From: Podospora anserina
Lineage: Eukaryota
Direction of reading: 5' to 3'
Length of the DNA stretch: 64,000 bases
Assembly: GCA_017654855.1 (NCBI GenBank)
Contig: CM030338.1
Location: 2,976,001-3,040,000 of the forward strand
The position numbers were made by a program, and so were the translations under genes. Within the stretch, counting starts at the first letter, position 1. Each line of letters opens with the position of its first letter. Positions 8,209 to 13,705 of the stretch are shown here, piece after piece. Under the pieces are notes generated by a model. It was given only the letters and a program-made list of their open reading frames with translations, was not told where the DNA came from and did not search any database.

Positions 8209-9816
8209 ATGTTCTCGCGAGCCACCCGGTTAACAAGGGCGCTGCCCATCCGCGTTGCTGCTGCCCGCGCCAGCCCTGTCACGGCTTCGCTTGCCCGGAG
8301 GACCGTCACCACCAATGCCGCTTCGGCGCAGGTTGATAAGAGCTCCGTCCCCCAGGTATGTTCAGTGTGGAGGTGTAGCAGCTTGTGTCATGAGTAGGAA
8401 CTGTGCTTTCCGGACCCACCGGGATGCTTGGATATCGAGGGGACATTATCGTTTGCATTGGGAGAATGTTTGCGATATATCTCTTTTATTTGCGAACGTT
8501 GTCAAGTCGCTCTTTTTTTTATTGTTGAGGTTTTGCGTCACTTTTTTGTTTGTCTGTCACTGATATTGTTGTTATTATCACGACAACAGTCCGAAGATGA
8601 GCCCTTCCATGTCACCCTTTCCGACGAGAGCTTCGAGACGTACGAGCTCGACCCCCCACCTTACCAGCTTGAGGTCACCAAGAAGCAGTTGAAGCAGATG
8701 TATAAGGATATGGTTGTCGTCAGGTATGAAAGGCACATGGGTTTTCGGAGGTCCGTGATCTTTGTGCTGACGCAACGATACCGGATCATAGACAAATGGA
8801 GATGGCTGCCGACAGACTATACAAGGAGAAGAAGATTCGGGGTTTCTGCCACCTCTCCACCGGTCAGGAGGCCGTCGCCGTCGGTATCGAGCATGCGATC
8901 AACAAGTCGGACGATGTCATCACCTCTTACAGATGCCACGGTTTCGCCTATATGAGAGGCGGCACTGTGCGCTCCATCATTGGCGAGCTTCTTGGTCGCC
9001 GTGAGGGTATTGCGTACGGCAAGGGCGGTTCTATGCACATGTTCGCCAAGGGCTTTTATGGCGGCAACGGCATTGTCGGCGCTCAGGTGCCTGTCGGTGC
9101 CGGGTTGGCTTTTGCCCAGAAGTATACCGGTGGCAAGAAGGCTACTGTTATCCTGTATGGTGATGGTGCTTCCAACCAGGGTCAGGTGTTTGAGGCTTTC
9201 AACATGGCCAAGCTTTGGAAGTTGCCCGCCCTTTTCGGGTGCGAGAGTGAGTTTCCAGACACTGCTACGAACATAGGGGTCATTGCTAACATTGTGGCTC
9301 TCAGACAACAAGTACGGTATGGGTACCTCCGCTGCCCGCTCCTCCGCCCTGACCGACTACTACAAGCGCGGCCAGTACATCCCCGGTCTCAAGGTCAACG
9401 GCATGGACGTCCTTGCGGTCAAGGCGGCCGTCCAGTACGGCAAGCAGTGGACTGAGGAGGACAATGGTCCGTTGGTTCTCGAGTACGTGACCTACCGCTA
9501 CGGTGGTCATAGTATGTCGGACCCCGGCACCACCTACCGCACCCGTGAGGAAATTCAGCGTATGCGGTCCACCAACGATCCCATCGCCGGCCTCAAGCAG
9601 CACATTCTTGACTGGGGCGTTGCTCAGGAGGACGAGCTCAAGAACATCGACAAGGAGGCGCGCAGCTTCGTCAACGAGGAGGTGGCCGCCGCCGAGGCCA
9701 TGGCCGTCCCTGAGGCCACCCCCAAGATCCTGTACGAGGACATTTACGTCAGAGGCTCCGAGCCCGATTTCATCCGTGGCCGCATCCTGGATGAGAACTA
9801 CTACTTCAAGCAGTAA
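8209..9816 (+). CDS. PDA1: Pyruvate dehydrogenase E1 alpha subunit, mitochondrial; exons 8209-8355, 8590-8723, 8792-9246, 9305-9816
   Basis: Arg-rich presequence [28 protein letters not shown]-binding motif [16 protein letters not shown]; phosphorylation loop [12 protein letters not shown]. Confidence 0.97.
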
Positions 9817-9874
9817 ATGGTTGGAGAGTAGAGTGGTTGTGAGGTGGTGAGGTGGTGAGGGGTTGAACAAGAGG

Positions 9875-9877
<3 letters not shown>

Positions 9878-9905
<28 letters not shown>
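9878..9905. repeat. (AG)n microsatellite downstream of PDA1
   Basis: Directly visible. Confidence 0.85.
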
Positions 9906-10288
9906 CCGTTTATACAAACAGTGAAATTACTCGAGCTTTGCCGCTGAGCATTTGGTTTTTTTTCTCGTGTGGTTGGCTTTTTTTTGTACATTACCTTCCT
10001 AATCGTCCGTCATAGAGCTTTCGGAGGGAAAAATACGGTTATGAAGAAAATGATTTTTGAGATTTGGGAATGGGACAATGGTGCTTTTCTTTTCTATTTG
10101 CCTTGCGTTTTGCGACTGAGTAATACTTAGAATATGCGGACGGTGGTATACATATGGGATTGAGAAGCATATTTTCACATGGAGGGCAAGTCCCTCGATG
10201 CATTAAGCTGATGCCTAAGCTTGGACCCTTCGATGCTGCCTGAAGATGAACAAAATGGCCCACTTTGCTCATGTGACCATGCTACTTT

Positions 10289-10330
10289 ACGCGAGAAGAT
10301 TAGGGGAGGGAAAACGCGTCGGAAGCGCGT
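10289..10330. promoter_or_regulatory. Cluster of MCB-like (ACGCGT) cell-cycle boxes upstream of DNA ligase I
   Basis: ACGCGA 10289-10294, perfect ACGCGT 10314-10319, GCGCGT 10325-10330. MCB/MBF control of CDC9 is established in yeasts. Confidence 0.55.
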
Positions 10331-10668
10331 CACTCTTTTGTCCTTCCAATTGGTTTGTAGTCGTACATACCTGCCGATTTGAAGCACCCTGTCACCGCTG
10401 CCCGCCTGCCGCCCGCCGCCCTGCCTGCTGCCTATTATTATTATTATTATTATCAATATTGGACGTGTACTTTTTTTTCTGGTTTTTTTGCAACTACTTT
10501 TTATAAAACACTTGCTAGTTCCAGCAATAGCAAATTCAAGAAAAGCTGGCTCCTCGGCTTTTGTCATTTTTGTCTTTTACTGCGATCTTCCCGCGACAGC
10601 AACAACTTTTACGACGAGGATTTTATTGCTCGAGGGCATTGTTTAGTGCTGGTGGTGGGTTGATTACG

Positions 10669-13600
10669 ATGCCTCCTAAGGGGAGTAGGCAGGCTACGCT
10701 GGGGTATGTATTGCCTGGTTGGGAGGAGGGGCGGTTGTTTTGTTGCGATTTATTGGGGCAGAGAGGACAGTTGGGACTGACTGAGTTGAACGGTACAGGA
10801 AATTCTTCACCCAGGCCAACGGCGCTGCGATTCCGGAGCCAAAGGTGGCGGCGCAAAATAAAACGCAGACGAAGTTAAGTTTTTCGACCAAGGTGGGGGG
10901 GGAGCAGAGCCCCAAGAGGAAGAAGAAGGATGAAGAGGAGGAGGTGAGTTCCGATGCTGAGGGGGGAGAGGAGGGGGGTAAACCGGTGGAGAAGAAGAAG
11001 AAACGGGGCCGGCCTGCTAAGGCTGCCATCATCACTACGACGGAAAAGAAGACGAGAAAGAAGGAGGTTGATGAGGATGGGGATGAGAGCATGGAGGATG
11101 CGGAACCTGCGCAGAAAAAAGCGAGGAAGGGGCGGAGGAGGGTGGTGAGGGATGAGGAGGATGGGGATGAGAGTATGGAGGATGCGCCGGCGCCGGTTGA
11201 GGATGGCAGGGTGTCCTCGCCGGAGGGGTATCAGTATGAGAAGGGGAGTGAGCCGAGGATGTTGAATGCGACGCCGAAGAAGAGGCAGGGAAAGAAGGTG
11301 AGACAGGATGAGAAGGAGTGGAATTTGGGGGTGGAGTCGCCGGAGGGGTATGATTATAAGGGTGGGAGTCCGCCGAAGCTTTTTAAGGGGGATAGGTTGG
11401 TTGCTGTTGGGGGGAAGAAGGTTGGGAAGGAGGAGGCGGGGAAGAAAGAGGGGGAGAAGGCCGGGAAGAAGGCGGTTGAGAAGGAGGAGGAGGAGGTTGT
11501 CAAGGAGGGAGAGGAGACGGCGTCGTCGGCTTCGGATGTGGAGATGGAGGAGGAGGAGGAGGAGGAGAAGCCGGAGGTGGTCAAGAAGGCGAGGCAGAAG
11601 GTGCAGGCTACGCTTAAGAGTGCTGATGAGCATCCTTTTCCTGATTGGAAGGCTGGGGAGCCGGTGCCGTATGCTGCTCTCTGCACTACGTTTTCGCTGG
11701 TGGAGCTCACGACGAAGAGGCTGGAGATTATGGCGCACTGTGCGCTGTTTTTGAGACAGGTTTTGAGGCTCACGCCGGATGATCTTTTGCCGGTGGTGCT
11801 GCTTATGATCAACAAGCTTGCTCCTGACTATGCGGGTATCGAGCTGGGCATCGGAGAGAGTTTGATCATGAAGGCTATCGGAGAGTCGACGGGCAGAAGT
11901 CTGGCGATTATCAAGCAGGATCAGAAGGAGATTGGTGATCTGGGCTTGGTGGCGGTCAAGAGCAGGTCGACGCAGCCGACCATGTTCAAACCAAAGCCAT
12001 TGACTGTTAGGGGTGTGCTGAAGGGGCTGATGGGCATTGCCACGACAACGGGCAATGGAGCTCAGGGGAGGAAGGTGGATGGGATCAAGAAACTGCTTTC
12101 CCAGGCTGATGCCAACGGGGCGAAGAAGGTTGATATCACCAAGGACAAGGGCGGGCCGAGTGAAGCCAAGTATCTGGTCAGGTTCCTGGAGGGGAAGCTG
12201 AGATTGGGTCTGGCGGAGAAGTCGGTCATTGTCAGTTTGTCACAGGCGGTGGTTGCGCACGAGGCGGCTCAAAAGGGGGTTGCGCCCAGTGCGGCTGACT
12301 TTGAGAAGGGCGAGGCGATCCTCAAGACTGTCTACAGCGAGCTGCCAAGCTACGATGTCATCATTCCGGCTATGGTTGAGCACGGGATCATGAACCTGAG
12401 GGATCACTGCAAGTTGAGACCTGGTGTTCCCCTCAAGCCCATGTTGGCCAATCCTACCAAGGCTATCACCGAGGTTCTGGACCGGTTTGAGAACAAGCTT
12501 TTCACTTGCGAGTACAAGTACGATGGTGAAAGAGCGCAGATTCACTATGTGGCCAAGGACACTGCTGAAGAGCTCAGCCAGTCGGCCGCGAATGCCAGCA
12601 AGGAGGTGGGTAATGGTGTGGCGGCGATCTTCTCGAGAAACTCGGAGGATCTGTCCAAGAAGTACCCTGACGTCTTGGCCAAGCTGTCTACTTGGGTCAA
12701 GGACGACACGAAGAGCTTTGTCTTGGACTGTGAGTCGGTTGCTTGGGATGTGGATGAGAAGAAGGTGTTGCCTTTCCAGCAGCTGATGACGCGCAAGAAG
12801 AAGGACGTCAAGATTGAGGAAGTCAAGGTCAAGGTTTGCGTCTTTGCGTTTGATCTGCTTTATCTGAACGGGGAGGCGGTGGTGAACAAGTCGCTCAGGG
12901 AGAGGAGGGAGCTGTTGCACAAGTCGTTTACTCCTGTCGAGGGCGAGTTTGCGTTTGCGACGTCGATGAATGGGCAGGAGCTGGATGAGATTCAGACGTT
13001 CTTGGATGAGTCGGTCAAGGCTTCGTGTGAGGGGTTGATGGTGAAGATGCTGGATGGGGAGGAGAGTGGGTATGAGCCTAGTAAGAGGTCGAGGAATTGG
13101 TTGAAGGTGTGTTTGGTCTTGCATTCCACATCGTCACAGGCGAGCAAAAGTGTGCTAATGTAAAACAGATCAAGAAAGACTACCTCGCCGGCATCGGCGA
13201 CTCGCTCGACCTCGTCGTCCTCGGTGCCTACTTTGGCAAGGGCAAGCGCACCTCTGTCTACGGCGCCTTTTTGCTGGCGTGCTACAACCCCGGCACGGAC
13301 ATGTACGAAACGGTCTGCAACATTGGCACCGGCTTCAGCGAGGCTGTGCTCGAGGAGCTGCATGCCCAGCTCTCCAAGATCACGATTGATCGCCCCAAGC
13401 CGTTTTACGCCCACAGCAGCGGGGGCCAGCACCAGCCGGACGTGTGGTTTGAACCTAAATATGTCTGGGAGGTCAAGACGGCGGACTTGACGCTGAGCCC
13501 GAGGTACAAGGCGGGGATGAAGGAGGGGGTTGACCCGACCGGGGAGAAGGGGATCAGCTTGAGGTTTCCGAGGTTTATCAAGGTGAGGGATGACAAGAAG

Positions 13601-13705
13601 CCGGACGAGGCGACGAGCAGTCGGCAGGTGGCGGAGATGTATCGGAAGCAGGAGAGTGTGAGTAAGAGCAAGGGGCCGAGTGTGGATGATGATTTTGAGT
13701 ATTAG
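10669..13705 (+). CDS. CDC9: DNA ligase I; exons 10669-10703, 10799-13106, 13169-13705 (959 aa from the AUG)
   Basis: PIP box QATLG|KFF across intron 1; adenylation motif EYKYDGERAQIH; CEGLMVK; RSRNWLK|IKKDYL; SLRFPRFIKVRDDK. Confidence 0.97.

Follow-up and report, generated by a model that had tools for sequence, protein, structure and literature searches.

The stretch of Podospora anserina DNA considered here, referred to as the window, comprises 64,000 nucleotides (GenBank assembly GCA_017654855.1, contig CM030338.1, positions 2,976,001 to 3,040,000), and all coordinates below are positions within it. It carries the gene for DNA ligase I and, ahead of the AUG from which the nuclear isoform is annotated, an open frame headed by a CTG codon at 10546 that is a candidate start for a longer, mitochondrial isoform. 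The features of the locus are as follows.

10356..10668, plus strand: 5' leader of the ligase mRNA, 313 nt, its extent being the reach of the RNA contigs; AUG-free in all frames
10528..10530, plus strand: in-frame TAG that closes the ligase frame on its 5' side, so that any extension must begin downstream
10546..10548, plus strand: CTG, proposed near-cognate start of the long (mitochondrial) isoform, context gaaaagCTGg
10546..10668, plus strand: N-terminal extension of 41 codons (123 nt), a putative mitochondrial presequence by its composition and hydrophobic moment
10669..10671, plus strand: AUG of the annotated (nuclear) isoform, with A at -3
10669..10703, plus strand: exon 1 from the AUG (MPPKGSRQATLG), the PIP box starting at 10690; splice joint present in RNA contigs
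10704..10798, plus strand: intron 1, 95 nt, GT..AG, with an RNA joint in one contig from each of four runs
10799..13106, plus strand: exon 2, encoding the end of the PIP box (KFF), a Lys/Glu-rich linker and the DNA-binding and adenylation domains (…CEYKYDGERAQ…)
13107..13168, plus strand: intron 2, 62 nt, inferred from GT..AG ends and frame continuity (…NWLK|IKKDYL…), outside RNA contig coverage
13169..13705, plus strand: exon 3, with the stop codon TAG at 13703-13705

Translated from the AUG, the ligase is 959 aa long, compared with 958 aa for the 'Putative DNA ligase' of Podospora comata (record P0002), to which exon 2 is 99% identical along its entire length. P0002 contains the Pfam domains PF04675, PF01068, and PF04679 (DNA_ligase_A_N, the adenylation domain DNA_ligase_A_M, and DNA_ligase_A_C), and on sequence grounds the window gene is DNA ligase I, the orthologue of Saccharomyces cerevisiae CDC9 and Schizosaccharomyces pombe cdc17. 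The exon 2 translation contains the adenylation motif EYKYDGERAQ. Directly after the AUG lies a PCNA-binding PIP box, QATLG|KFF (consensus Qxx[LIM]xx[FY][FY]), which is split by intron 1; a PIP box close to the N-terminus is found in 71 of the 120 best homologues.

The open frame upstream of the AUG

The initial annotation of this DNA proposed that translation from the CTG yields a mitochondrial ligase, and its reading of the locus agrees with the sequence. An ATG occupies 10669-10671 and an in-frame TAG 10528-10530, with zero in-frame ATG codons between them, and the CTG at 10546-10548 lies in a strong context, with A at 10543 (-3) and G at 10549 (+4). Initiation at this codon would add 41 aa, (L/M)APRLLSFLSFTAIFPRQQQLLRRGFYCSRALFSAGGGLIT, containing five Arg and no Asp or Glu and having a maximum hydrophobic moment of 0.64. 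No weight is placed here on the RRGFYCS string, which the initial annotation likened to a processing motif.

To gauge how often such features arise by chance, the 123 nt were subjected to 20,000 dinucleotide shuffles. Of these, 24% left the frame open; it was open and devoid of acidic residues in 1.0% and open, devoid of acidic residues and furnished with at least five Arg or Lys in 0.5%. The remaining two frames of the window are likewise open across 10531-10646. The idea that the open frame is significant by itself was rejected on both counts, namely its frequency among shuffles and the openness of all three frames over that interval. The composition of the extension is unusual, its open frame is unremarkable, and the window alone makes a weak case.

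CTG 10546 is the sole in-frame near-cognate codon that combines a purine at -3 with G at +4. A 313-nt leader free of ATG in every frame was obtained in 0.46% of 5,000 shuffles. The nearest ATG on the 5' side of the leader is at 10279, and none occurs in any frame across 10282-10668; an upstream start can therefore only be non-AUG.

Transcripts spanning the CTG and the AUG

Logan contigs from four runs, belonging to four studies, were mapped onto positions 9800-11000, with the repeat at 10404-10463 skipped. One contig per run (4/4 runs) omits exactly the 95 nt of intron 1, and because of this spliced joint the contigs of these runs represent transcript assemblies. The spliced contigs begin at 10360 (X1), 10372 (X2), 10356 (X3), and 10464 (X4), the last of these ends adjoining the skipped repeat. 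Collinear with the genome from their starts between 10356 and 10464 up to 10702, they carry no further joint, at the CTG or elsewhere, and differ from it nowhere in sequence. The CTG is therefore part of the mRNA, preceded by at least 82-190 nt of leader, with no upstream exon spliced on. The initial annotation had considered that transcription might begin 3' of 10546, and this was not borne out, since spliced contigs in all four runs reach 10356-10464. Thus, in each of the four runs CTG 10546 and AUG 10669 are carried by the same mRNA within a single unspliced, collinear leader, and the anatomy of the gene around them is directly observed.

A conserved near-cognate codon in related fungi

A metagenome scan recovered 80 related loci. 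In 41 of them exon 1 could be recognised, as M[A/P]PKQATLG ahead of a GT donor; the other 39, lying on short contigs or coming from distant eukaryotes, were left out of the analysis. Removal of duplicates (L038, identical to L007; L043, identical to L042; L025, close to L010; and L052, close to L050) left 37 loci, or 38 with the window. No nearby in-frame upstream AUG is present in 21 distinct loci, window included, that share a motif, [V/L]-A-[S/T/P]-R-x-hydrophobic, at the head of the extension. The first codon of the motif is GTG in 11 of these and CTG in 10, and no other Val or Leu codon is used. Among the 20 loci scored (GTG 11, CTG 9; L046, with CTG, was added separately as the 21st), the third base of this codon is G in 20/20, position +4 is G in 20/20, and position -3 is A in 19/20. 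By contrast, the Ala, Ser, and Arg residues beside it are each encoded by 2-7 different synonymous codons, and other Val and Leu codons within the same extensions are GTG or CTG in just 14 of 108 cases (Fisher 1e-14, phylogeny ignored). In Neurospora crassa, a ranking of start codons by Wei and co-workers in 2013 reportedly placed CUG best and GUG next. Alignment across relatives, suggested beforehand in the initial annotation, was positive and broader in outcome than expected, revealing CTG or GTG in a Kozak-type context at 21 AUG-less loci.

The nearest relatives of the window, L046, L050, L053, and L066, have Chaetomiaceae as best named hits at 88-96%. They retain aa[a/g] CTG gcN ccN (K-L-A-P) amid otherwise unalignable DNA, with the CTG located 51-89 codons 5' of their AUG. 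The possibility that AAG|CTG is the acceptor site of an upstream coding exon was considered and rejected, as L046 and L050 have AAA at this point and the RNA contigs show no joint there. Putative CTG or ATC starts can be proposed for L018, L026, L028, and L032, with the A-S/T/P-R motif in none of them, and L017 is cut by the end of its contig.

Two side observations concern the conserved start region. At L051:1876, a Magnaporthales-like region, an out-of-frame ATG lies just 8 nt 5' of the conserved CTG and, if transcribed, would compete with or regulate the near-cognate start. P0103 is a Logan ORF of 931 aa on a 5209-nt contig that is intron-free and begins 14 codons 5' of V-A-S-R-Q, reading through MAPKQATLGKFF; it probably derives from a transcript assembly, which suggests that an mRNA of another species also spans the conserved start region.

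Coding signal in the extension

In 38/38 loci the frame 5' of the AUG stays open over 22 codons or more, while in the other frames an open stretch of 19 codons or more is present in only 22/38 and 25/38. The in-frame peptides of 20 loci (all but L046) amount to 583 residues with 2 Asp or Glu and 94 Arg or Lys, whereas the other two frames of the same DNA encode 44 and 44 acidic residues. In-frame stops in relatives, which would have spoken against translation according to the initial annotation, are absent from all 583 codons, compared with 16 and 11 stops in the other frames. The mean maximal hydrophobic moment is 0.63 in frame versus 0.35 and 0.42 in the others. Among extensions of the same length, mismatch at the three codon positions is 0.49/0.36/0.59; the 45 nt 5' of the NTG (the CTG or GTG) give 0.69/0.67/0.66, with no periodicity. 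Conservation and coding periodicity both begin at the NTG, indicating that the coding signal starts there.

Between the NTG and the AUG, the 21 motif loci contain 0 ATG in any frame where approximately 22 would be expected (summed by subtraction from per-locus figures), and the AUG-free zone extends a further 8-337 nt 5' of the NTG. The PIP AUG has A at -3 in 18/21 loci. Leaky scanning past a weak start to a strong AUG farther 3' calls for just such a layout. Comparison of the loci demonstrates purifying selection across the clade, acting on the NUG codon and its context as well as on the frame and composition of the putative extension.

It could be argued that the leader is untranslated in this frame, that the NTG-GCN pattern reflects a promoter, an initiator, a leader structure, or some other RNA or DNA element, and that mitochondrial ligase is made otherwise. 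This is highly improbable, the most so of the alternatives considered here. An open frame is indeed expected in 24% of window shuffles, and the extension matched no protein in the collection searched, although that search, made with the 57 residues of extension plus exon 1, returned 133 candidates with none at E <= 10 and is uninformative either way. However, a nucleic-acid element predicts neither three-base periodicity that begins at the NTG with position 2 most conserved, nor a composition specific to one frame, with stops absent and acidic codons avoided in that frame only, nor conservation of the amino acids A-S/T/P-R despite free synonymous change, nor the replacement of the NTG by ATG in other lineages.

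Translation of the extension would leave its function to be assigned, and here we infer a presequence from composition, hydrophobic moment, and precedent. A basic residue lies 4-5 residues ahead of the PIP Met in 17/21 loci, the window being one of the four exceptions, and such a residue at -4 or -5 fits cleavage near the junction. Cleavage by the mitochondrial processing peptidase (MPP) follows an arginine rule.

Start states and annotation

A quick maximum-likelihood tree built from 513 conserved ligase columns placed the 21 NTG loci in one clade (SH-aLRT 99) and the 12 AUG-type metagenome loci in other clades. Within the NTG clade, whose best named hits are Sordariales-, Hypocreales-, Magnaporthales-, Coniochaetales-, and Chaetosphaeriales-like (labels approximate), the window groups with L046, L050, L053, and L066 (support 95). 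Mapping the codons on the tree takes 5 changes for GTG and 4 for CTG, amounting to at least four switches between the two.

The best 120 annotated or ORF-called homologues were sorted by N-terminus. Sixty-nine start at the PIP methionine, including P. comata and every named Sordariales record having an N-terminus, and 42 are without an N-terminus or read through the intron. The nine that have an extension before the PIP Met come from four Colletotrichum, Diaporthe batatas, Tolypocladium, Fusarium annulatum, and two Logan ORFs; these extensions contain 0-2 acidic and 3-11 basic residues (Arg or Lys), and eight of the nine are Met-started, P0078 being a partial record with an internal Met. A two-AUG arrangement like that of CDC9 therefore exists in some Sordariomycetes, and the AUG-started Colletotrichum, Fusarium, and Tolypocladium records show more than one exchange between AUG and NUG in the history of the class. 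In P0093 (MASRRVFQLTTRTTLRVLN-MAPKQ…), one of the nine, Met occupies the exact NTG position (MASRRVF…, 19 codons). In L011-L015, the ATG lies two codons 5' of the homologous position, where the Val codon reads GTT/GTT/GTT/GCT/GTC and never GTG. The L048:187 region, which is Chaetosphaeriales-like, has an in-frame ATG 35 codons and a conserved CTG-Ala-Ser-Arg 23 codons ahead of the PIP AUG, and may represent a stage between the AUG and NUG states.

The expectation that automated annotation would miss the extension was correct: it is absent from all 69 homologues annotated from the PIP Met. Since the Sordariales ligase I records among these homologues all start at this nuclear PIP Met, annotation leaves the entry of the ligase into mitochondria unexplained. 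The conserved CUG or GUG start would supply the missing mitochondrial isoform, and the locus flags a systematic annotation gap.

A separate observation on the annotated N-terminus is that in many relatives the PIP start is duplicated in tandem, as MAPKQATLG-YVKxxQxTLG with a GT after it; this is seen at L018:3796, L023:926, and L030:5204 and in the protein records P0038, P0050, P0063, P0099-P0101, P0105, P0110, P0113, P0115, P0119, and P0120. The usual GTATGT donor, which reads as G-Y-V when not spliced, closes the first copy, and a GT 30 nt downstream closes the second. Either donor, when joined to KFF, rebuilds the PIP box, and annotations differ in the donor used; the two may serve as alternative 5' splice sites.

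Leader composition and the neighbouring gene

Inside the ligase leader, the interval 10396-10500 opens with a GC-rich tract of CCGCC/CTGCC from about 10396 to 10433; a (TAT)n microsatellite at about 10434-10455 and long runs of T follow. On the 5' side of the ligase gene lies an ORF at 9277-9816 on the plus strand, which resembles the C-terminal exon of a pyruvate dehydrogenase E1-alpha-type protein. RNA contigs cover the 3' untranslated region of this gene (9915-10213), and one of them ends in poly(A) at 10213, leaving only about 140 nt between the poly(A) site of the upstream gene and the first ligase leader base found in contigs.

A dual-targeting model and its alternatives

The arrangement described here is probably a near-cognate version of the CDC9/cdc17 design, in which ligase I started at CUG 10546 would serve the mitochondria and ligase I started at AUG 10669 the nucleus. 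Dual targeting through a non-AUG start, the central proposal of the initial annotation, is supported by both comparative and transcript evidence, with CUG initiation, import, and processing as its predicted steps. According to this model, one ligase I mRNA would carry two in-frame starts. A minority of scanning ribosomes would initiate with Met-tRNAi at CUG 10546, which lies in a strong context, adding 41 N-terminal residues, and the Arg-rich, acid-free, amphipathic extension would direct the ligase into mitochondria, where it is probably cleaved. Most ribosomes would bypass the CUG and, because the leader holds no AUG in any frame, would start at AUG 10669, giving a nuclear form that begins with the PCNA-binding PIP box.

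Several observations weigh against this model. The window extension is alignable with its nearest relatives over the first 4-6 residues only, its first 15 residues (LAPRLLSFLSFTAIF) are rather hydrophobic, and its last basic residue is 12 residues ahead of the Met. Among the AUG-less loci, L018, L028, and L032 have out-of-frame ATGs within their putative extensions and L026 is without the motif. The single NTG clade implies long maintenance of the codon with toggling of its first base, not 21 independent origins, so that the Fisher P is inflated, and the taxon labels of the metagenome loci are best-hit guesses. Contig ends prove neither a transcription start nor isoform abundance. Finally, a TATAAAA at 10502-10508, approximately 40 nt 5' of the CTG and within the transcribed leader, is a possible second promoter element that could permit a second transcription start near or after the CTG and hence CUG-less or CUG-proximal mRNAs.

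The last two points bear on the proposal that two transcription starts largely determine the ratio of the isoforms, or that initiation occurs at another near-cognate codon such as TTG 10561 or 10570, several further in-frame near-cognates being present. We consider this very unlikely. None of the remaining in-frame near-cognates combines a purine at -3 with G at +4, the CTG alone is conserved in the four nearest relatives, and an AUG-free leader is a requirement of leaky scanning on a single mRNA; moreover, alternative starts could coexist with CUG initiation rather than replace it.

The hydrophobic beginning of the window extension, sufficient to resemble the core of a signal peptide, raises a different alternative, namely that the extension is translated from the CUG and has a role other than mitochondrial targeting, as an N-terminal regulatory element, as a degron, or in directing the protein to a different compartment. 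Such a role is unlikely. These fungi need a mitochondrial ligase, and no separate or dedicated one is known in filamentous ascomycetes. Conserved non-AUG extensions with non-targeting roles do exist in Pezizomycotina, cpc-1 being an example (PMC5487733). Nevertheless, an Arg-rich, acid-free, amphipathic composition that is kept in 21 loci while the sequence drifts is typical of presequences, the basic residue shortly before the PIP Met is retained in most of these loci, and CDC9 and cdc17 carry a mitochondrial targeting sequence at the same position (PMC11229318).

Should dual targeting through the CUG hold, the ligase locus would be an unusually clean natural case of AUG, CUG, and GUG interchange at one homologous start site. 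The CTG would also offer a single-codon handle with which to separate nuclear from mitochondrial ligase function in Podospora, a model of ageing driven by mitochondrial DNA (mtDNA). A more speculative idea, which we put forward tentatively and regard as rather doubtful, is that the CUG/GUG start is an ancient, clade-wide control point through which the supply of mitochondrial ligase is tuned translationally, apart from that of nuclear ligase. Near-cognate initiation depends on start-codon stringency, which varies with eIF1 and eIF5 levels and with stress. If the idea is true, near-cognate control would tune mtDNA repair and rearrangement through this stringency, translational state could be linked to lifespan in Podospora, a classic model of senescence by mtDNA instability, and the same hidden design may apply to other nuclear DNA-maintenance genes of these fungi.

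Comparison with known systems

In plants, Arabidopsis LIG1 is dual-targeted via two AUGs, and the organellar polymerase POLgamma2 starts at CUG. The ligase described here differs from LIG1 in kingdom and in start codon, the plant ligase using AUGs. S. cerevisiae CDC9 and S. pombe cdc17 produce nuclear and mitochondrial ligase from two in-frame AUGs that flank the targeting sequence, a finding credited to Willer 1999 and Martin & MacNeill 2004 in PMC11229318. The Podospora gene belongs to the same enzyme family and likewise has two in-frame starts flanking a short presequence, here a putative one, that adjoins the PCNA-binding N-terminus, so that one gene would serve both genomes. Unlike CDC9 and cdc17, in which both starts are AUG, the window and 20 related loci would use CUG or GUG, and the window transcript is without an upstream AUG.

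Near-cognate starts that add a presequence are also established in fungi. The mitochondrial isoform of yeast Rnh1 begins at ACG (PMC11681198), and in Cryptococcus the leucyl-tRNA synthetase LeuRS begins at ACG and the arginyl-tRNA synthetase ArgRS at AUU, amid repeated swaps between weak AUGs and near-cognates in fungal tRNA synthetases (PMC7049704). A yeast-wide screen described a 'cryptic mitochondrial pool' of isoforms with near-cognate starts (PMC6582344). The ligase would resemble Rnh1, LeuRS, and ArgRS in that an upstream near-cognate adds a presequence to a nuclear or cytosolic protein and leaky scanning leads to the main AUG; it is unlike them in that the gene is DNA ligase I and the codon is conserved over a deep clade, toggling between CUG and GUG. 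Within Pezizomycotina, the evidence for N. crassa cpc-1 is of the same kind as that presented here: its near-cognate codons are conserved, in a context of A at -3 and G at +4, and the extended frame is under purifying selection (PMC5487733). In contrast to the cpc-1 extension, which is long, lies among upstream open reading frames, and is not a targeting signal, that of the ligase is short and presequence-like.

No report of a near-cognate-started mitochondrial DNA ligase I was found in the literature searched, though supplementary gene lists could include the ligase; the word 'ligase' is absent from the text of PMC6582344, PMC7049704, and PMC5487733. The mechanism is a familiar one, and what is new, as far as checked, in comparison with these systems is the gene in which it would operate, its clade-wide conservation, and the interchange of CUG, GUG, and AUG at a single start site.

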